From IMG/VR virus record IMGVR_UViG_3300033069_000746, positions 2,681-66,680 of that record: a stretch of DNA of 64,000 bases; one strand, given 5' to 3'. The notes below the pieces were generated by a model. It did no database searches. It saw only the letters and a list, made by a program, of their open reading frames with translations, and had not been told where the DNA came from. The DNA is from a virus. Its lineage: Duplodnaviria > Caudoviricetes. Below, one piece after another: positions 2,674-14,181 of this stretch. How positions within the stretch are numbered: position 1 is the first letter of the stretch; each line of letters opens with the position of its first letter. Made by a program: the position numbers and the translations under genes.

Positions 2674-3306
2674 TCACTCTCCCTTTAAAAATTCCCTGAT
2701 CGTCACCGGGCTAACGCAATGACTCACCCCGTCATCCGCACCGCCCAGCAGAATCCCGCAAACGCTTCCCTCAATCAGCAGCGGTGAGCCGGACATGCCG
2801 GACTCAGTCACCGCCAGTACCTCCACCATCGGCCTGCCGCCGAAGGTAATCCCTTCCCGGCCGCGGACGGCCCGGCTGACCACCGCAGAGCCCCGTAGAT
2901 AGCCTCGGATCTCTCCGTTGGCTTTGATGTCGTCTATCCCATAGAAACGCACTGAGGCCCAGCCAGGGGCCTCGTACGATATTAGAGACAGGTCCATCGA
3001 GTCGTTGACCTTGATGATCCGGCCGGGCACGCTGACCCGGGCTTTACCATCGGCAGCGAACTCGATCCGTACGTCGCCAGTCTTGTCGTGGTGCTCACAG
3101 GTCAGTACCCGGTCTTCCGAGATGGCCACGCCGGACCACTCGACAGACTCTTTCCCGTCGGTCCAGGTGAGTCTGGCCACACCATCGAGGTTGACTTCCT
3201 AGCCGAAGCATGAGCCTACCCCAATACCAAGGACCAATGCTGTTGCCAGAGCGATCAGTATGACTTTGGCGATACGTACGACCAATGCCCAAACATCACT
3301 GTCCAT
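2674..3306 (-). CDS. Trypsin-like serine protease with signal/TM leader, interrupted by one in-frame TAG at 3199-3201
   Basis: VLTCEHH, DLSLI and GMSGSP triad motifs; GGAGG and ATG at 3306 encode a 35-aa hydrophobic leader in the same frame. Confidence 0.75.
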
Positions 3307-3329
3307 GACTACCTCCTACGTTGTTTGTA

Positions 3330-3359
3330 AACCCGCGCGCAGAATAAACCTTGTTCGTC
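3330..3359 (+). mobile_element. attC right half-site (left end of cassette array)
   Basis: GTTCGTC at 3353-3359 is the exact reverse complement of GACGAAC at 3705-3711; left arm missing. Confidence 0.6.
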
Positions 3360-3363
3360 GTAC

Positions 3364-3687
3364 CTAGTCGCCAAGAATTTCCTCTTCCAACTCTTCATGG
3401 CTGACCCAATCCAACGCCTCTGACATGGCATCGTCGATCGTTTCGCCGTCCTCGTGCCCATCGCGGTAGAATGCGTCCGTGCAACGCTTGACCAATGCCC
3501 GAGATTCGTCGTACCGTTTTCGCCGTTCCGCATTGCTTGCCGCGACTCGCGACCAGAACCCGCGAAGATTGCCGATCACGTATCCTCGGATTTCATCTGG
3601 CGTTGATTCGTCCCACTGCATTTCGGCGATGTACTTCTCGATGAACTCGTTTCTTGCAATCTCTGCGTCTGTTTCTGCCTGACTCAT
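3364..3687 (-). CDS. Cassette-borne hypothetical protein (paralog of 4914..5237)
   Basis: Bounded by matching cores GTTCGTC/GACGAAC; GNLRGFWSRV vs GNLRAFWSRV. Confidence 0.85.
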   Translation of the reverse strand: MSQAETDAEIARNEFIEKYIAEMQWDESTPDEIRGYVIGNLRGFWSRVAASNAERRKRYDESRALVKRCTDAFYRDGHEDGETIDDAMSEALDWVSHEELEEEILGD

Positions 3688-3704
3688 AATTAACTCCAAA
3701 GGAC

Positions 3705-3760
3705 GACGAACAAAGAATTGAAAACGACGGCGGTCGACATCAATCGCAGTGGAGGCCGTC
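3705..3760 (+). mobile_element. attC left half-site, right arm lost or degenerate
   Basis: GACGAAC-N5-ATTgAAAACGaCGGC; the expected partner core GTTCGCT is not found downstream. Confidence 0.55.
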
Positions 3761-3888
3761 AACTCCGCATCCTTGTACTTGACCTTACCGATCCATTTGC
3801 AAAACAAATTGCTGCTGCAAAATCCAGCATGACACAAGTTGACAGCCAGATTGCCCTAAGCAATTCAAAAGGTGTCGATCCATGTGTC

Positions 3889-4092
3889 TTACTTGATACC
3901 ACTTACCACGATGCTGGTGTGTTCTTTGAAAACACATCGTCATGGCCCAAAATGCGTGGGCTCGTCAATCCAGAGGGCACCTTCGTCGTCGCTATCGTCG
4001 GTGATTCTGGTGTCAGTTTCTGTACTCACTCTGTCCCAAAATAAGAACACAACAGCCCCGCGAGTGTCTGTCAGTTTCAGCTCGTCAAACAT
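3889..4092 (-). pseudogene. Cassette-borne short or degraded ORF (TGA at 3940-3942, frame continues to TAA 3889-3891)
   Basis: GGGGG RBS-like run before ATG 4092, just after attC 4121-4211; competing plus-strand ORF 3718..4044 exists. Confidence 0.35.
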
Positions 4093-4120
4093 CGCCACCC
4101 CCTGAAAGTCGAATCGCAAA

Positions 4121-4211
4121 AGCGAACCAAGCGTTGAACCGGAGTTGGCGTCCTCCGGTTTTGAAATTAGAAGCCGGGCATTCGCCAACCCGGTTAACGC
4201 GGTCGTTACGC
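4121..4211 (+). mobile_element. attC site (91 bp)
   Basis: AGCGAAC-N5-GTTgAACCGGaGTTGGCG...CGCCAACCCGGTTAAC-N6-GTTACGC, two extrahelical bases. Confidence 0.9.
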
Positions 4212-4466
4212 AGAGAACCGTGAGTTCCACGCATCCACCGCACTGATTGCCGCCTTGACGTGCCGCGAACGATCATACGCTTGGTCGTTCGTTTTCCAGT
4301 TTGCCGCCTGCCCCGGCTTCGTTGCTCCGCAGCAATTGCACTCCACCCAATAAGAGGGCGTCCATGTGTTTGCAAGCTCCAATTCTGTCGATCCACAGAA
4401 CGGGCATGGCCGCAACTCTCTACCGATTTCTTCGAGCGTAATGTATACCGATTCAACCGTTGACAT
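4206..4466 (-). CDS. Lar-family (restriction alleviation-like) zinc-ribbon protein in a cassette
   Basis: LRPCPFCG...YWVECNCCGA; TAA stop lies inside the attC GTTA core. Confidence 0.65.
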   Translation of the reverse strand: MSTVESVYITLEEIGRELRPCPFCGSTELELANTWTPSYWVECNCCGATKPGQAANWKTNDQAYDRSRHVKAAISAVDAWNSRFSA

Positions 4467-4476
4467 GTGATCTCCT

Positions 4477-4570
4477 GCGTAACAACAAAATGCACCCGAC
4501 TGCGGCGCTCGGACGCGAATTTGGAATCCATAATCAATCCGCCGCAGACGGGTGATTTTGAGCGTTACTT
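4477..4570 (+). mobile_element. attC site (94 bp)
   Basis: GCGTAAC-N5-AATgCACCCG...CGGGTGATT-N6-GTTACTT. Confidence 0.9.
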
Positions 4571-4861
4571 TGACGCGGCTTTTCGAGCAATCACCATCGC
4601 CCATTCTTGGCTGGTGAGAAAACTGTCATCCATTTCCTTCGCGGAGATGCAATATTCTAGCGACACTCGCTTCCCGTGATCGTTCGTGTAAGCCCTGAAT
4701 GTGAACCCCTCCTGGAGATACTCTAGGCTTACTTTCCAGTCAGTCATATTGGAAAACCACCACATGATTTCCGCCGCAGTGCGATATCGCTTCAGCCATG
4801 CCTCGTCCAAACGCAAAGTAACAATGGCATCAAGCCGAGGCTCGGAAGTCTGTTGGTTCAT
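4565..4861 (-). CDS. Cassette-borne hypothetical protein (start uncertain; ATG 4861 lies inside the attC, alternative ATG 4765)
   Basis: TAA stop inside attC core; bounded by matching cores GTTACTT/AAGTAAC. Confidence 0.7.
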   Translation of the reverse strand: MNQQTSEPRLDAIVTLRLDEAWLKRYRTAAEIMWWFSNMTDWKVSLEYLQEGFTFRAYTNDHGKRVSLEYCISAKEMDDSFLTSQEWAMVIARKAASK

Positions 4862-4919
4862 GTGAAAGTCTTTCGTTTGTAAAGGTGATTTGTCGCCCGG
4901 CTTATGCCAAGCGTTAGGT
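4816..4919 (+). mobile_element. attC site (104 bp)
   Basis: AAGTAAC-N5-CATcAAGCCG...CGGCTTATG-N6-GTTAGGT. Confidence 0.9.
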
Positions 4920-5237
4920 GGACATGATCTCATCTTCCAGTTCTTCCTGGCTGACCCAATGCAGCGCCTCGACCATCGCTTCCTCTGCGGTCGGGCCTTC
5001 CTCGAGTTCGTCGCGATACCACGCATCGGTGGCTCGCTTCATCAACGCTCTGGCTTCGTTGTACCGTTTCCGCAGTTCGCTGTTACTGCCCTGCACTCGG
5101 CTCCAAAACGCACGGAGGTTGCCGGCAACGATCGTCACCATGTAGTCATCCACTGGTTCGGACCATTGCAGAGACTTGATGTAGTCTTCCACAAACTTTT
5201 GGCGCTCAATCTCTTCGTTGGTCTCTGCTGTGCTCAT
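4914..5237 (-). CDS. Cassette-borne hypothetical protein (paralog of 3364..3687)
   Basis: TAA stop inside attC core; bounded by matching cores GTTAGGT/ACCTAAC. Confidence 0.85.
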   Translation of the reverse strand: MSTAETNEEIERQKFVEDYIKSLQWSEPVDDYMVTIVAGNLRAFWSRVQGSNSELRKRYNEARALMKRATDAWYRDELEEGPTAEEAMVEALHWVSQEELEDEIMST

Positions 5238-5243
5238 AAAGCC

Positions 5244-5333
5244 ACCTAACAACAAAATCCACCGGAGTTGCCGTCCGGCCTGTTTCTGAAATCCACGTCA
5301 CCAGCGGCAACCCGGTGATTTTGAGCGTTACTT
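5244..5333 (+). mobile_element. attC site (90 bp)
   Basis: ACCTAAC-N5-AATcCACCGGaGTTGCCG...CGGCAACCCGGTGATT-N6-GTTACTT. Confidence 0.9.
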
Positions 5334-5426
5334 TGACTCAGAGGGACTCGAACCCTCACGCATGTCTGCACCGGTTTAGGGCCATCGCCTTTAGGCCAGC
5401 GTGTCTGCCAGTTCCACCATGAGTCA
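5333..5426 (-). ncRNA. tRNA-Leu-like RNA with aberrant expanded anticodon arm, no encoded CCA
   Basis: TGACTCA/TGAGTCA acceptor stem, GTG-GAACTGGCAGA-CAC D arm, GCA-GACA-TGC variable arm, GAGGG-TTCGAGT-CCCTC T arm, A discriminator. Confidence 0.7.
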
Positions 5427-5522
5427 ACCCAACTCAGCTTTAGTTGGCATGGGATCGTTTCTGAGGAAAAGGGTATCAACCGCCCTTCAAAATCAATCTT
5501 TTTCGCGCCGCCTGTGCTTGCC

Positions 5523-6401
5523 TCACGTTGTTGGGGTAATCTCAATAATCGGCTTGAACGTGGTCTTACCGTTCTTTGTTGTCCGAGAGACCGTCAGCCT
5601 GGCCCACCACCCACCGAGCGGTTTAGGTGGTTTACCAGTACCAACGTGCCACCCACCTTTGCCTGTACCGAAATCGTCTTTGTATGATCCGGTCTTCACA
5701 TACCAGACCTGACGGTTCTTGACCTCGCCAAGGTCCGTCAGTCCTGTCTTTGTGTGTTCCTGCACCCATCGCTCATGGACGTGCCCTGAGACCATGATAT
5801 CAGCCCCGTCGACATACGCCTGCTGACGCTGGGACTGAATCGTATCTTTCGTCACGGGACCACCACCACCGTATCCGTGGTGGTGCCAGAGAACGACAGA
5901 GGTACGGTTACCTTTGTAGTCGATAACGATCCGTATCCACCCGGTGTACCCGGTCACAGGAACAGCCGCCCCGGTACGGTCCCGGAGCGTCTGAGCGAGC
6001 CTTGTAGTTAGACAACTTTCATGCCTGTCTTTAATTGAGACCTCATGATTGCCGATACCCAAGGCAAGAATGTTACCAGCGTACGGTTCGTAGAAGTCTG
6101 CCGCTGTGCGAACAAGGGCGTCAAGGTAGTCTCCGGACTGGTGCTCAGGTCGGATATCACTCTTGCTTGACCGATGGTCAAATTTTCCTTGCATTGCACA
6201 AAACAGGTCACCCACGTCTATAATTCCAGCCCCACATGCCTTGGCCTCGTCAAGGTGCTTTTTCTCAAGGTCTCTGTCCGATTTCGGATGGTCGTGGTGA
6301 CAGTCCCCCCTGAGCAGAAGCCACTGCTCGTCGTTGATGCTATCGAAGTCAATCTTCACCTGGACGACGTTGGGGCTGACTGTCTCCTGGAACTTGAACA
6401 T
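5523..6401 (-). CDS. Calcineurin-like metallophosphoesterase
   Basis: GDCHHDH, GDLF, GNHE, HHG, SGHVH motifs. Confidence 0.85.
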   Translation of the reverse strand: MFKFQETVSPNVVQVKIDFDSINDEQWLLLRGDCHHDHPKSDRDLEKKHLDEAKACGAGIIDVGDLFCAMQGKFDHRSSKSDIRPEHQSGDYLDALVRTAADFYEPYAGNILALGIGNHEVSIKDRHESCLTTRLAQTLRDRTGAAVPVTGYTGWIRIVIDYKGNRTSVVLWHHHGYGGGGPVTKDTIQSQRQQAYVDGADIMVSGHVHERWVQEHTKTGLTDLGEVKNRQVWYVKTGSYKDDFGTGKGGWHVGTGKPPKPLGGWWARLTVSRTTKNGKTTFKPIIEITPTT

Positions 6402-6567
6402 GGTCTTCTCCGGCTTGTGATAAAGCATAAACCGCCAAAACCATAGCTGAGGCGTTGATGAAACACAAGCCGAAATTGCCTTCCCGAAGGTCTACCAGCA
6501 GCAAAACTGTGTTGACCCCGAGCATGAACCACATCGAGTTTTTGATGTACGGCATAGGGCTTTTCAC
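6349..6567 (-). CDS. Small membrane protein
   Basis: Two hydrophobic stretches; ATGA/GTGA-type coupling to the upstream gene. Confidence 0.5.
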   Translation of the reverse strand: MKSPMPYIKNSMWFMLGVNTVLLLVDLREGNFGLCFINASAMVLAVYALSQAGEDHVQVPGDSQPQRRPGED

Positions 6568-7190
6568 AGTTTCTTCTCCGTAAAAGGTTCAACCGGGTTT
6601 GGGTACTTCTGCAGGATCGACGTGACAAGCTCCTGCACAGCTTGTGAAGGGTTACCCACGACAGGTGGGCGGTTGTCTGTCAGCTTACCTGCAGCCTCTG
6701 CGTCAAGCAGTATGATACAGCATGCAGCGACGTGGGCCAGATGTGGTGCCCCACTCTCAGGATCGAGAGTCTCACCTTCCCACCAGGACATGATGTGCCT
6801 CTGCATCGCGTCGTAGTACACGTCAGAGCGTACGCCGATGGATCGCCAGTTGTGACTGCCGTACTTGCAAGCACCACTGAGCATCGCAGCACCGATCTGG
6901 TAGAGAGGGCCGCACGGGACGTTGTGAAGCGTTGGTTTGGTTGAGCCGATCACGTCCTTGGGGTTTGAGGGTTTGACTGCCGGGGGGCCTTGAGGCGGTA
7001 CGCCCCAGGCTACGTCATACGTACGGATTGACCCCACGTCAGTACGGATGTCGACGGTGTAGTTGAGACCGTTAAACTCGACTCCAAGGACTCTGTACAT
7101 CTTACCTGCGGTCGCGTTCCACGACTTGAGATAGTTCGCAGCTTTGTCATTGAACACGAAGTCGTCACCAACCTTAAACGGGTTACTCAT
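6564..7190 (-). CDS. dATP/dGTP diphosphohydrolase-like protein (DUF5664)
   Basis: K..L..VP...GACKYGSHNWR...DAMQRH...DPESG..HLAH..CC..IL signature. Confidence 0.8.
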   Translation of the reverse strand: MSNPFKVGDDFVFNDKAANYLKSWNATAGKMYRVLGVEFNGLNYTVDIRTDVGSIRTYDVAWGVPPQGPPAVKPSNPKDVIGSTKPTLHNVPCGPLYQIGAAMLSGACKYGSHNWRSIGVRSDVYYDAMQRHIMSWWEGETLDPESGAPHLAHVAACCIILLDAEAAGKLTDNRPPVVGNPSQAVQELVTSILQKYPNPVEPFTEKKL

Positions 7191-7423
7191 CCCAACACCT
7201 CCAGCGAAGCTCGTACTGATCGTACGGCAAGATTAAGAAGATACGCCTTGTCCGGACAGTCGTCTTTCTGGATCTGCTTCAGTTCGTCAAGCAGAGCCCC
7301 GAACGCCCAATCATGTCCAAACTGTTTGGCCTCGTGGGTCGACATGCCTCGGGGCAAAGCCCCCTCGTGCAGGACGAGCACAATACGCCCGTCTGGCAGT
7401 ACATCGATCTGGTCAAGTCTCAT
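7187..7423 (-). CDS. Hypothetical protein
   Basis: Translationally coupled to neighbours. Confidence 0.65.
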   Translation of the reverse strand: MRLDQIDVLPDGRIVLVLHEGALPRGMSTHEAKQFGHDWAFGALLDELKQIQKDDCPDKAYLLNLAVRSVRASLEVLG

Positions 7424-7761
7424 GTGCTCTCCTTCACAAACACACCGTCAGGCCGCAGATAGCCTTTACGGTCTTTGATTTCCAAATACGCCTGGGCGAT
7501 ACACGCATGGATGTCCAGCCCGGCACAACCAGCGACCATGACCAGCGTGACAAAGACATCACCGATGGCATCAGCGAGTTCGCCTTCCGCGTGGGCTTGG
7601 TACGTGTAGTTCACATATTGATGTACTCTGATTTCAGCACAAGCCGTGATCAACTCATGTACCTCCTCGATCGTCTTCCGGCTCTGGGCCAGCGGGGTGC
7701 TGTTCTTGATAATGCCACGATCATGGCCCCACTGTTTAATCTTCTCGATTAGGTCTTCCAC
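7420..7761 (-). CDS. MazG-like nucleotide pyrophosphohydrolase
   Basis: KTIEEVHEL...DAIGDVFVTL...AYLEIKDRKG. Confidence 0.85.
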   Translation of the reverse strand: MEDLIEKIKQWGHDRGIIKNSTPLAQSRKTIEEVHELITACAEIRVHQYVNYTYQAHAEGELADAIGDVFVTLVMVAGCAGLDIHACIAQAYLEIKDRKGYLRPDGVFVKEST

Positions 7762-9985: not shown

Positions 9986-12223
9986 ATGTCCTTTGATGAG
10001 CAGCAGTACCGCAAAGCCGCGGTACTGACGGCGGCGTATCTGTGCCGCCACGGAATTAAGATCTTCGTAGCCGAATACGGCTCGAAGAAGCCAGTGGGCT
10101 ACTGGACAGAGAACGCCACGAACGACATCAACGAGTTCGTGAAGAAAGTCCCTGCAGGCCCGTTCAACGTAGCCATGACCTTCGGCCCCACATCGGGCAT
10201 CTGCGACGTAGAGCCAGACACCGACGAGGGCACAGCCATTATCGAAGGGCTCATGGCCGAGGCCAACTGCCGAACCCTCGCGTACAAATCCCGCCGCGGT
10301 GTCCACCGCATCTTCCAGTGGACAGACCGCCTTGCCCCGCTCAACAAGAACAATCCGAAAGCCAAGGGTCTTGAATGCCGTCTCGCTTCATCGGACAAAG
10401 ACTTCTACTCGATATGCCCACCGTCGCTTCATCCGGACACAGGTGAGCATTACGAATGGTTGCCCGGCTGTGCTCCGTGGGAAGTCGGCCCGGCGCCGAT
10501 GCCAGAAGTTATCATCCAGTGGTTCCTGGCAAACGTCAGGCCCAAAGGACAAGACGCCAAAGAGGTTGAGGTAGGGCTCGAAGAAGACGGGTACCTGCCA
10601 CAGGTTGGTAACCGCCATGAGTTCCTGCTGGCGTGGAGCAAGAGTCTCTACTGCGACTGGCAGTTGCCGACAGAAGACTGCGTTGAGCTTAGTCGGTACA
10701 TGGCCCAGCGGATCGGCACGTACGCCGACCACGATCGCGGCGAGACTGAAGTCAAGAACCTGTTCAACAATCTCCGTCGGCCTGTCAACCACGGGCGAGA
10801 ACTCATCGCCGCTGTTGATATGCAGGTCGTGGCTGAGGCAGCCCACGAGGCCGTCGGCAAACTCCAGTACGTGGCCGCCACAGGCGACTGCCCGGAGATA
10901 CCGAGCCACATCTTCCCACCGCTGATCGAAGAAGCGAGTCAACAGGCAAAGCTGGCCGGGTACCCACGCAACCTTTGGCTGATGACGATCCTGACAACAG
11001 CGATGTTCCAGATGGGACAAGCGGTGCGAGTACGAGCCAGCGTGAATCACGATACGCTCGGCGGGCAGCTATACACGTTTGGAGTGGGAGGTTCTGGATC
11101 GGGGAAGAGTAAGACCATGAAGGTCTTGCTTGGTCCGACCTCCCACTCCGACGCTATGGCCACGGACAGCAGCCCCGAGGCGTTGGTGTCGCTGCTGGCC
11201 AAATACCCACGAGGAGTCCTGCTGCAGTTCACAGAGGGCAAAGACTTCTTTAAGATGTTCAACAAGTACAACACGACAGGGCAGAGCGACAACAGTCTCT
11301 ACCACAAGTGCTTCTCAGGGGACACTGTCGTGCGAGTCCTGCAAAAAGGCAGAACCGTTGTACGGAATCCACACCTTGTGGTCAGTGCAGCGATCCAGCA
11401 GGTCAACCTGAATCAGATGCCGATGAACGACTGTCTGGACGGACTGCTCCAGCGAATGTTCATTTACCCTATCGGTGAAGTACCCAGACGCGAGAGCGAG
11501 GAGGCCCTCGCCGCTCACAACGAGTTCCTGAAGACGTGGTACGAGATCTGCCAAAGACTCGGTGAGATAAAGCCTACGATCGGGTCACCGAGTCTGTCTC
11601 AATTGATTAGTGCCACTGGTCAGGTCGAGCTACCTTTGACGCTCACGCTGGACGACCAGGCAAGACACCTGTGGAAAGGATACGCCGAGACGAAGAAGTC
11701 ACCGATCGTCATGGCTCAATGGCCGGAGGACCACCCACACCGGGCGGATGTCGTGCGTCACGCTGAGATCGCTTTGAAGTTCGCCCAGGGCTTGAACATG
11801 CTGTGGTGTGCCTGCGACCCGGCGTTCTGGATGGCCAATAGCATACCGACTCAGCAGCACGGCTGGATACCGCCGCACATCACGCAGGGCTCGATCGACC
11901 TGATGGAGTGGGGCTGGCTGAAGAAGCAGAAGTACGTTGACCACATCGTCGAGGCAGCGTTTGCGTCGGTCAGCGGAGACATGTTGAAGCGTGAAGAGTC
12001 TGTCACGAAGAAGATGGACGATTACTTGAAGGAACGTCGCCGTCGCGTCGAGCGTGTGACTGACGAATGGACGTTGCGTGACTACTACACTATTCTCAGG
12101 CTGAAGAAAGTCGAGGCCCGGCAGGAGGTCGACCTGTTCCTCCGGGAAGGACATATCGTACAATTACCACCGAGCGAGACGCAGAAAGTCGAGCGGTACA
12201 AATTTTTGGGAGATGTAGAATGA
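9986..12223 (+). CDS. Bifunctional primase/polymerase fused to DUF3987-type P-loop domain
   Basis: N-terminal CDVEPD, GVHRIF, PPSLHPDTG; C-terminal GGSGSGKS, SPEAL, GLLQRM. Confidence 0.8.
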   Translation: MSFDEQQYRKAAVLTAAYLCRHGIKIFVAEYGSKKPVGYWTENATNDINEFVKKVPAGPFNVAMTFGPTSGICDVEPDTDEGTAIIEGLMAEANCRTLAYKSRRGVHRIFQWTDRLAPLNKNNPKAKGLECRLASSDKDFYSICPPSLHPDTGEHYEWLPGCAPWEVGPAPMPEVIIQWFLANVRPKGQDAKEVEVGLEEDGYLPQVGNRHEFLLAWSKSLYCDWQLPTEDCVELSRYMAQRIGTYADHDRGETEVKNLFNNLRRPVNHGRELIAAVDMQVVAEAAHEAVGKLQYVAATGDCPEIPSHIFPPLIEEASQQAKLAGYPRNLWLMTILTTAMFQMGQAVRVRASVNHDTLGGQLYTFGVGGSGSGKSKTMKVLLGPTSHSDAMATDSSPEALVSLLAKYPRGVLLQFTEGKDFFKMFNKYNTTGQSDNSLYHKCFSGDTVVRVLQKGRTVVRNPHLVVSAAIQQVNLNQMPMNDCLDGLLQRMFIYPIGEVPRRESEEALAAHNEFLKTWYEICQRLGEIKPTIGSPSLSQLISATGQVELPLTLTLDDQARHLWKGYAETKKSPIVMAQWPEDHPHRADVVRHAEIALKFAQGLNMLWCACDPAFWMANSIPTQQHGWIPPHITQGSIDLMEWGWLKKQKYVDHIVEAAFASVSGDMLKREESVTKKMDDYLKERRRRVERVTDEWTLRDYYTILRLKKVEARQEVDLFLREGHIVQLPPSETQKVERYKFLGDVE

Positions 12224-12260
12224 TCAACAACACGATCTTTCCAGACAGAAGATCAAAAAC

Positions 12261-12446
12261 ATGATCACCTTCTGCTTCGTCTACAATAAGCCAGCGAACG
12301 TCAGGTTCGTATGGGATGATGTTGGCCCCGGCCTGCACGTAACGTGGTGCGAGGACAGCAGCCTGATCGACTTTGTCGTGCGTGACGACTCTGGCCTGAA
12401 AGTACGTGGGATGTTTCAAACCCTTTGTGAAAGTTTGGTACGATGA
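12261..12446 (+). CDS. Hypothetical protein
   Basis: Coupled to the next gene. Confidence 0.5.
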   Translation: MITFCFVYNKPANVRFVWDDVGPGLHVTWCEDSSLIDFVVRDDSGLKVRGMFQTLCESLVR

Positions 12447-12637
12447 ACGAAGAACGAGCGTTTCCGGTTCCTAACGGTGCAGACGTAAACGGCCAACGAG
12501 GCATGACCCTTCGGGACTACTTCGCCGCGAAGGCGTTATCCAGCCTGAACTGGGTTGCCCGGGATTCAGACTTCGAAGATGACGCCAGGATGTGCTACAA
12601 GATGGCCGACGCGATGTTGAAAGCGAGAGAAGAATGA
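12443..12637 (+). CDS. Conserved small phage protein
   Basis: GMTLRDYFAAKA...YKMADAMLKAR motif common in phages. Confidence 0.75.
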   Translation: MNEERAFPVPNGADVNGQRGMTLRDYFAAKALSSLNWVARDSDFEDDARMCYKMADAMLKAREE

Positions 12638-14181
12638 GCACCTTCGTCTATGCCCGTGTATCCACGCTCGACCAGTACGTCACAGGTTACTCCGTCGACG
12701 CTCAGGTCAAAGCCTGTCTTGAGTACTGCCAGCGGTACCAGCTACCGCTTGGCCGTGAGACGAACTGCGACCTGCCGGGCGTGTTCATCGACGGTGGTAA
12801 GTCAGCGTATAAAAAGACGCTGAGCAACAGACCGGGTGGAGCGGCTATGCTCGGGGCTCTCAAGCCCGGAGACACTGTCGTAGCCACAGCCACGCACCGA
12901 CTGTTCCGTCGCATGAAGGACATCGTCACAACGCTTGAGACGTGGGTCGAGCACGGCATCTCTGTAGTCTTCACGGACTACCCGGCTCTGAACACCAACA
13001 CGGCCAACGGTAAAGCTATGCTCTATATGTTGGGCATTATGGCCCAGCTAAAGAGCGAACTGATGGGGGCCCGTATCAAAGAGGCCAAGACGATCAGCAA
13101 GTCGAAGGCCTCGAACGAGAAGCCACGGCCTGTGATTCCACGACCGGTCATGGAGTGCAGCACGAAAGACATGGCAGAGATCATCCGCCAGATCGCTGCT
13201 GGTCGAGAGCAGAAACAGCTTGACGCAATCAAGACAATCCGGGCGTACGTGCGAGTCAGTACGAACGACCAGACTGTCGAGAACCAAGTTGCCGCGATCG
13301 AGCGTATGATGCCGCCAGAGTTTTCCGGCAAGCCAGTGGTGTGGTATCGTGACGAAGGGGCATCGGCCTTTACCACACCACTGGCCAAACGCAAAGCCGG
13401 GTCAAAGCTGATGGCAGACCTGCAGCCGGGCGACCTGATCGTCACACTGCGTCCAGACCGTATGTTCCGATCGTTGCATGACTCTGCTCGGGTCGTACGA
13501 CAGATCGACGATGTCGGTGCTGCGATCATGGCTATCGAAGGTGGGTTCAGAACGGACACCCCGTTCGGCAAGACCTTAGTCCAGATGATGACTATGTTTG
13601 CCGAGCTTGAGTCGGCCGAGATCGGCCGGTCAACTAAGCATGGGAAGATGCAAGCGTGTGCTGTCAGCGAGAAGGCCAGGGCTGAGTTCATGCCGAAGTT
13701 CCTGCGTCCACCGGGAAGCAACGGGCTCAAACATTATGCTTTCCACGCGATCTTCAACGCGGAGGAGCGGATGCACATGTACCTTGAGTTGTACATGACT
13801 GGCAAGAACTACCGCGACCAGCGAACGGCTGTGCGGGTCATCTCGAACAAGTGGCTCAAGCTGAAGGGTCTGCCACCTGTGACAGGCGAGTTCGGCATGC
13901 CAGCGAAAATGTACGCGGCCAAGCTGAAGAAGATGCAGGAAGACGAGTTCAGCGAACGACGATTCAGGTTGATTACCATGCTGAAGACCTTTAAGCATGA
14001 CGTGATCTACCCGATGAACATTCTGACCATCGTGCGTACGATGCGTCGTATGGAAGCATTCCTTGCCGTGGCTAAGACACTGCCCGGCAGGCTGCGTGAC
14101 AAGTCAACCCTGACAACGATTGCATCGCAGTGTGCGGTGCCACAGGGCATGACAGATCTTGTGAGGAGGGTAAGTACGTGA
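12634..14181 (+). CDS. Serine recombinase with two tandem resolvase-type catalytic domains
   Basis: YARVST...Q...GDTVV..THRLFR and YVRVST...Q...GDLIV..PDRMFR, each followed by a T.T..G...helix E. Confidence 0.9.
   Translation: MSTFVYARVSTLDQYVTGYSVDAQVKACLEYCQRYQLPLGRETNCDLPGVFIDGGKSAYKKTLSNRPGGAAMLGALKPGDTVVATATHRLFRRMKDIVTTLETWVEHGISVVFTDYPALNTNTANGKAMLYMLGIMAQLKSELMGARIKEAKTISKSKASNEKPRPVIPRPVMECSTKDMAEIIRQIAAGREQKQLDAIKTIRAYVRVSTNDQTVENQVAAIERMMPPEFSGKPVVWYRDEGASAFTTPLAKRKAGSKLMADLQPGDLIVTLRPDRMFRSLHDSARVVRQIDDVGAAIMAIEGGFRTDTPFGKTLVQMMTMFAELESAEIGRSTKHGKMQACAVSEKARAEFMPKFLRPPGSNGLKHYAFHAIFNAEERMHMYLELYMTGKNYRDQRTAVRVISNKWLKLKGLPPVTGEFGMPAKMYAAKLKKMQEDEFSERRFRLITMLKTFKHDVIYPMNILTIVRTMRRMEAFLAVAKTLPGRLRDKSTLTTIASQCAVPQGMTDLVRRVST

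Follow-up and report, generated by a model that had tools for sequence, protein, structure and literature searches.

Positions 3353-5333 of the phage DNA analyzed here very probably constitute a cluster of attC sites lacking an integron integrase (CALIN), with five gene cassettes in the early region of the phage; we infer that the cassettes are exchanged by an integron integrase (IntI) acting in trans and expressed by leftward read-through. The window, i.e., the whole stretch of 64,000 nucleotides (nt), comprises bases 2681-66680 of a 66,680-nt virus record in IMG/VR (IMGVR_UViG_3300033069_000746). The record, rated 100% complete by CheckV, is that of a tailed phage and encodes a large terminase, a portal, a helicase, an exonuclease, PolA and PrimPol. 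Genes to the left of about 8.5 kb run leftward, and the array sits within this leftward (early) block, between an exonuclease-like gene and a protease gene.

Integrons are mostly viewed as bacterial gene-capture devices, and recent work has found that many integron cassettes carry anti-phage defenses. A CALIN, as defined in IntegronFinder, consists of at least two attC sites close together without an integron integrase nearby. The window contains four intact attC sites within 1.2 kb, and no integron integrase or tyrosine recombinase (TIGR02249, PF00589) was found in the whole 66.7-kb record, in line with a first-pass annotation, made from the sequence alone, which had seen no integron integrase. 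The locus is not a complete integron: there is no intI, and the left junction is to ordinary phage DNA with only the GTT. The four sites, which the first-pass annotation had placed at the same positions, were found again by a script that enforced a strict geometry with 0 mismatches; it returned these four in the 66,680-nt genome, all on the plus strand, and no others. They are listed here with their R'' and R' cores and their scores against a covariance model (R2) described below:

4121-4211, plus strand: attC site S3; R'' AGCGAAC, R' GTTACGC; strict rule, 0 mismatches; R2 27.9 bits, E 1.7e-4; fold z -4.0/-4.5.
4477-4570, plus strand: attC site S2; R'' GCGTAAC, R' GTTACTT; strict rule; R2 37.4 bits, E 8.6e-7; fold z -6.3/-5.7.
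4816-4919, plus strand: attC site S1; R'' AAGTAAC, R' GTTAGGT; strict rule; R2 26.6 bits, E 3.4e-4; fold z -2.5.
5244-5333, plus strand: attC site S0; R'' ACCTAAC, R' GTTACTT; strict rule; R2 60.3 bits, E 2.8e-12; Pirellulaceae type.

On the plus strand, the 5' arm of S0-S3 consists of xxxxAAC, a 5-nt spacer, three paired bases, one unpaired base (G, G, C, C), six paired bases and an unpaired A, which in S2 (4477-4570) takes the form of an A.A mismatch. Beyond the unpaired A, an inner stem is capped by a loop of about 30-46 nt, and the 3' arm, which has no extra bases, leads through a 6-nt spacer to GTTxxxx. AAC and GTT were invariant in 4/4 intact sites, and the outer core bases varied, as they do in real arrays. 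The bulges lay 9 and 16 nt after AAC, exclusively in the R''-L'' arm, the asymmetry that gives an attC its strand polarity, in all four sites (one of them being the A.A mismatch). This shared geometry with an extrahelical base, already described in the first-pass annotation, was therefore present in every intact site, compared with a mean of 0.025 sites when the same rule was run on 200 Markov shuffles. As had also been proposed, both strands of the sites folded as long, imperfect, bulged hairpins with the R/L geometry, with z values from -2.5 to -6.3.

Because each cassette carries its own R'' plus the TTxxxx that completes R', the cores of neighboring sites are expected to chain. This was the case at 4/4 window junctions, where the cores were complementary over 7 nt, exactly as first read: GTTACGC/GCGTAAC, GTTACTT/AAGTAAC, GTTAGGT/ACCTAAC and GTTCGTC/GACGAAC. 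One could read such structures as mere terminator-like or regulatory hairpins between phage genes, and weak terminator-like sub-hairpins do occur inside some of the sites. However, terminators are not characterized by chained cores and bulges at fixed positions, nor by T-tract-free loops of about 30-46 nt, and we regard this reading, together with that of an assembly artefact considered below, as very improbable.

The strict rule was applied unchanged to control arrays, i.e., known integrons from records that Qi et al. 2023 name. For the phage-plasmid P1 MH445380, the rule returned five attCs of the class-1 array and no others (psp, aadA2, cmlA1, aadA1 and qacH), each immediately 3' of its gene and on the coding strand; the strand on which the rule matches is therefore the canonical attC top strand. 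The attC polarity was calibrated on L054 and on a Pirellulaceae genome (L080), and in the latter the rule also picked two attCs of an intI-linked array. It did not find the Vibrio and Shewanella chromosomal attCs; two Vibrio attCs inspected by eye had three bulges, at other positions.

The covariance model R2 was trained on two Pirellulaceae integron sites, nine sites from a second phage contig (G001) and one site from a distant relative (L023), with no sequence from the window. On the plus strand it matched exactly S0-S3 (E 3e-12 to 3e-4), so that, with R2 as a surrogate, the attC model matches called for in the first-pass annotation were obtained; the next matches, among them the truncated site at 3705, were at about 12 bits (noise). 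It also detected the aadA1, cmlA1, aadA2 and dfrA attCs in P1 MH445380, on the coding strand. A narrow model (R1), built from four aadA-type class-1 sites, gave no significant match in the window (best 9.1 bits), but R1 also missed the Vibrio and Shewanella chromosomal attCs, and its failure on the window is thus uninformative. Since a pairing rule was used to select the sites, covariation counts from the site alignment A7 are overestimates, and an Rfam search of 3000-6000 gave no match. The geometry, the chaining, the external model and an identity of 87% between S0 and an attC adjoining a bacterial intI (see below) support the view that 4121-4211, 4477-4570, 4816-4919 and 5244-5333 are integron-type attC sites, and agree with the IntI-type cassette signature that had been claimed for them.

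On the plus (attC top) strand, each cassette would run from the TT of a GTT core to the G of its own attC, which divides the array as follows:

3353-3359, plus strand: core GTTCGTC at the left end of the array; crossover (G/TT) between 3353 and 3354; the adjoining phage DNA is not attC.
3354-3768, plus strand: cassette A, with c5 (3364-3687, minus strand, 107 amino acids) and an attC at 3705-3768 without its 3' arm.
3769-4205, plus strand: cassette B, 5'-truncated, with small open reading frames (ORFs) at 3940-4092 and 3785-3943 (both minus strand; coding doubtful) and attC S3.
4206-4564, plus strand: cassette C, with c3 (4206-4466, minus strand, 86 amino acids), a Lar-like restriction-alleviation zinc-ribbon protein, and attC S2.
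4565-4913, plus strand: cassette D, with c2 (4565-4861, minus strand, up to 98 amino acids, no family) and attC S1.
4914-5327, plus strand: cassette E, with c1 (4914-5237, minus strand, 107 amino acids), a paralogue of c5, and attC S0.
5332-5427, minus strand: tRNA-like gene (ARAGORN: tRNA-???), abutting the right end of the array.

The two half-sites proposed in the first-pass annotation had different fates: that at 3705 (plus strand) is an attC without its 3' arm, whereas that at 3353 (plus strand) is the outermost cassette boundary and not half a hairpin. Its estimate of about one short ORF per unit held for the other cassettes, but not for 3769-4205, with its two doubtful small ORFs, which had no family match.

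All of the cassette ORFs lie on the strand opposite to the attC top strand, as judged by the Lar-like Pfam match, by the ribosome-binding sites (RBSs) with their start codons and by a conserved family (A1), and they are co-oriented with the leftward genes of the phage. c3 matched PF14354 (Lar_restr_allev) with an E value of 1.4e-11, above the Pfam cut-off, and also phrog_599; its RBS (AGGAG) and ATG are 10 nt from R''. Each of the cassette genes has an RBS and an ATG within a few bases of the R'' of its own attC. Three TAA stops fall inside cores on the minus strand, as first noted, i.e., those of c3 (4206-4208), c2 (4565-4567) and c1 (4914-4916), where the first three bases of each of these cassettes, read on the opposite strand, spell the stop. 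Plus-strand frames are not open in both c1 and c5; codon-position counts for c1 versus c5 do not by themselves reveal the coding strand.

c1 and c5 are 58% identical in amino acid sequence and belong to a phage-only family with nine further members. A profile search with this family found only L057 among viral contigs, and L055 and L056 in metagenomes; no close relatives of c1 were found in viral contigs. In two homologues (P0003 and P0004) the attC is read through in front of the ORF. The predicted structure of c1 was helical, with low confidence (pLDDT 67.7, pTM 0.35). A further sequence, P0009, consists of the N-terminus of DUF551 joined to the C-terminal part of the c1/c5 family. For c2 a single homologue was found (P0010, 89% identical). 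Read from its most upstream ATG (4861), c2 starts within the S1 loop, so that its first 15 codons (4816-4861) come from the attC arm, and P0010 retains the stretch encoded by that arm.

A second phage array came to light through the c1/c5 family search. This viral contig, G001 (IMGVR_UViG_3300020576_002948, 33 kb), differs from the window phage in its terminase, portal and head family, and contains nine strict-rule sites in a row, with 9/9 junctions complementary over 7 nt and all ORFs antisense. Window positions 3353-3768 were 100% identical over 416 nt to G001 3654-4069, and apart from the paralogue similarity of c1 and c5 the two phages had no other similarity. The identity starts at the G of GTTCGTC (G/TT, 3353), with unrelated sequences upstream, and extends across c5 and the first 64 nt of its attC, where the window copy ends, whereas G001 goes on with the 3' arm. 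The comparison also shows that a gene and the attC preceding its start codon move together, as the top-strand assignment predicts. Because the identity to another phage's cassette is 100% over 416 nt, the transfer must have been very recent. We take the block as direct evidence that unrelated phages have exchanged a cassette, in the form of a sequence footprint at the crossover point. A DUF551 (PF04448) gene (L057, 3187-3621, plus strand) lies just past the low-coordinate end of the G001 array.

The analysis also covered four public sequencing runs, drawn from a riverine, a freshwater and an unlabelled study, the last of which contains the phage; it is present in two of the runs (X23 and X24). 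The c5 block was present in 4/4 runs; in X23 and X24 its depth exceeded that of the phage backbone 4- to 50-fold, and it continued into G001-type neighbors. Blocks of identity to the window ended at 3353, 4207, 5246 and 5329/5330, all in cores, with at least four different continuations. In X1, 3769-3944 was present with a different left neighbor, and in X23 the 3' arm of S3 ran, after GTT, into a different sequence. Taken with the G001 block, the divergence of run contigs directly after GTT at 4207 and 5329/5330 shows the cassettes to be, to all appearances, modular and exchanged at the G/TT crossover.

The runs also bear on the possibility, graded above, that a fragment of a bacterial integron was joined to the phage contig during assembly. 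Indeed, the c5 block also belongs, as a repeat, to an element that is far more abundant in these samples, and there was no contig coverage of 3769-4177, or of the 3768/3769 junction, in X23 or X24. However, independent Logan contigs at backbone depth span 3000-3382, 4178-5275 and 5301-5800, so the array is joined to the phage. An X24 contig spans the left junction (3353) by 30 nt. In addition, phage genes lie on both sides, and the cargo is of a phage type (Lar, and the c1/c5 family seen in the phage contigs L055 and L057).

Several observations weigh against an array of cassettes exchanged by IntI. As a result of the gap in contig coverage, the IMG/VR assembly is the sole source for 3769-4177 and the 3768/3769 junction. 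A precise cassette deletion (excision joint) within the window phage was not found in contigs of the four runs. With all of its ORFs antisense to the attC top strand, the array departs from the usual integron design; in the usual cassette the ORF is on the attC top strand and is followed by its attC, an arrangement that is usual but not strictly defining. The c1/c5 family was not found in 151 Pirellulaceae genomes, so that what links the array to host integrons is the similarity of the sites, and this link does not extend to the genes. Finally, the array appears to be partly decaying, with not all junctions made by IntI, because one attC is truncated and the right end resembles a stub. Of the truncated attC, the initial 64 nt (3705-3768) remain; the 3' arm, which in the intact G001 copy ends in GTTATGA, is missing. 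The left end is a clean G/TT junction to phage DNA. On the right, the start of cassette D recurs as GTTACTT plus TGAC, which suggests that a 10-nt remnant (stub) of a c2-type cassette has been fused there to the tRNA-like gene at its 3' end. A 24-nt exact repeat links the same places: 4551-4574 (S2 3' arm, core and start of cassette D) recurs at 5314-5337 (S0, beside the tRNA-like gene). The tRNA-like gene (5332-5427) had no Rfam match at E<=0.1 and was not present in the relatives L001-L004.

Relatives of the phage supply another side of this argument. In the closest (L003), the flanks are 87-98% identical at the nucleotide level and there is no array, an outcome that suits the comparison with related phages proposed in the first-pass annotation: the exonuclease-like gene stops 12 nt before the start of the protease gene, and the whole 2.2 kb comprising the tRNA-like gene and the array is missing. 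Among 47 loci of relatives, only that of the distant relative L023 bears a site, and it is single. This lone site (12218-12309, minus strand) has the full attC geometry, with a 16-bp stem and bulges G and A; it lies downstream of the same exonuclease-like gene, and the start codon of a gene falls in its loop.

The array could be a fossil, acquired on a single occasion (through IntI or through illegitimate recombination with another element) and now consisting of ordinary genes and dead sites between which no exchange occurs. The truncated attC at 3705-3768, a cassette B without its 5' end, the stub-like right end, the lack of excision joints in the four runs and the presence of even one site in just 1/47 related loci would all fit such a history. 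We nevertheless think it unlikely: four sites retain perfect geometry and chaining, the c5 block is 100% identical over 416 nt to the cassette of another phage and hence very recently transferred, and identical blocks occur in several contexts in present-day samples.

If cassettes are still being exchanged, which enzyme does this? The only recombinase found in the record is a serine recombinase (12592-14181, plus strand) of 529 amino acids with two resolvase catalytic domains, and the attC sites might be substrates of this or another phage-encoded recombinase rather than of IntI. This is hardly credible, because the array-less L003 has the double-domain enzyme (96.8% amino acid identity), whereas G001, with its nine-site array, lacks it, no tyrosine recombinase or resolvase having been found in its 33 kb. 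Moreover, the design of the sites and the crossover at GTT are typical of IntI substrates, and sites of this type adjoin intI in bacteria. With no tyrosine recombinase in the record or in G001, and with the serine recombinase distributed in this way, a host IntI acting in trans would be the best-supported mechanism, for which the identity blocks that end at G/TT provide indirect support. IntI1 can recombine attCs of virulent phages (PMC9892861).

The site type points to a host. In the Pirellulaceae genome L080, an array begins beside the N-terminus of intI, which is on the opposite strand, i.e., the canonical integron layout; S0 was 87% identical to its first site (attC1) over 86 nt, loop included (75/90 ungapped). 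Full-length S0-like sites occurred in 25 of the 151 Pirellulaceae genomes sampled, and in 0/88 and 0/17 genomes in the families of two other integron-bearing genomes. All five S0-positive genomes tested (5/5) had integron-integrase matches, three of them above the family cut-off. An exact 17-mer search found none in viral contigs; in bacterial genomes it gave 68 matches, about the number expected by chance, and at four of these loci the 17-mer forms the 3' arm of a site with the strict attC geometry. The TerL of the phage had one 32%-identical match in a Pirellulaceae genome, which is too weak for a host call. The distribution of sites leads us to infer that Pirellulaceae (Planctomycetota) were their source and are the probable host. 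The sites thus look host-type and the c1/c5 genes look phage-born, the latter because the family is missing from the 151 Pirellulaceae genomes and because no attC is visible beside its homologue in the phage-like contig L055.

In the mechanism that we favor, the bottom strand of each attC, when single-stranded, would fold into the bulged hairpin recognized by integron integrases; published assays put the use of the bottom strand at about a thousand-fold over that of the top strand (PMC13108822). Cassettes would then most likely be gained, lost and swapped through IntI supplied in trans by the infected cell. As each cassette gene has its own RBS, its expression would come from phage transcripts that continue across the attC sites. 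We also put forward, tentatively and as a possibility rather than an expectation, that the reverse design is no accident, i.e., that a separate pool of 'reverse' cassettes, with phage genes antisense to host-type attCs, is maintained by phages whose hosts bear integrons, and that these cassettes move between unrelated phages via host IntI. If so, the recombinogenic bottom strand would be on the non-template strand of phage early transcription, the genes would not be expressed from Pc when captured by a host integron, and the arrays would represent a distinct, phage-adapted form of integron devoted to accessory and anti-defense genes.

The other genes of the leftward block code for nucleotide metabolism (MazG-like, dATP/dGTP diphosphohydrolase-like and 5' nucleotidase), a trypsin-like protease and the exonuclease-like protein. 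The genes at 6564-7190 and 7420-7761 (both minus strand) are a dATP/dGTP diphosphohydrolase N-terminal domain (PF18909) and a MazG-like gene. No PurZ/PurA homologue (PF00709) was found in the record, and there is thus no sign of a 2-aminoadenine genome. The exonuclease-like gene adjoining the array (5523-6428, minus strand) has only 62% amino acid (72% nt) identity to that of L003, compared with 85-98% for flanking genes, and by sequence divergence its region is apparently a mosaic hot spot. In the protease gene (2674-3306, minus strand), an in-frame TAG at 3199-3201 separates the signal-peptide part from the trypsin-like domain; the protease of L003, otherwise 97% identical, has CAG at this position.

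CALINs of this kind have been described before, in 17 of 10,705 phage genomes, virulent phages included, and IntI1 recombined 5/6 phage attCs in an assay (Qi, Rajabal, Ghaly, Tetu, Gillings 2023, PMC9892861). The first-pass annotation, which held that CALINs are described mainly in bacterial chromosomes and plasmids, had thus overstated the surprise of a phage case. Like the window, the published examples consist of at least two attCs with cassettes in a phage genome without intI, and both have cargo of an anti-restriction type: methyltransferases in the CALINs of Qi et al. 2023 (PMC9892861) and the Lar-like protein here. In Tetrasphaera phage TJE1, two weak model matches follow sense-strand ORFs, whereas all of the cassette genes in the window are antisense, and a backward gene orientation is not described in Qi et al. 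2023 (PMC9892861). The window also goes beyond those CALINs in that one cassette is 100% shared by two unrelated, uncultured phages and in that the attC type can be traced to Pirellulaceae.

The Pirellulaceae integron of L080 resembles the window array in its attC1 (87% identical to S0) and has the same spacers, bulges and core chaining. Unlike the window, it has its own intI, and the genes in its cassettes, which by eye are glyoxalase-like and acetyltransferase-like, lie on the top strand of the attCs; it was not found to contain any of the window cassette genes. Class 1 cassettes (P1 MH445380) share with the window the 5-nt and 6-nt spacers and the bulges 9 and 16 nt after AAC, and are recognized by R2. 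However, their sites have short loops and are 60-70 nt long, versus 90-104 nt in the window, and their genes are in the sense orientation and expressed from Pc next to intI1.

The locus is significant as a phage bearing functional-looking cassettes of a host site type, an anti-restriction gene included, one of which moved very recently between two unrelated phages exactly at the integrase crossover. It offers a concrete, testable case for phages using host integrases to trade accessory genes; the site type is a culture-free clue to the host, Pirellulaceae, and the backward orientation may reveal how such cassettes are made or expressed. Compared with what was known, the phage CALIN as a kind is not new; what is new are Pirellulaceae-type sites in an uncultured phage, the footprint of exchange between phages, and cassette genes that are uniformly reversed in the arrays of both the window and G001.

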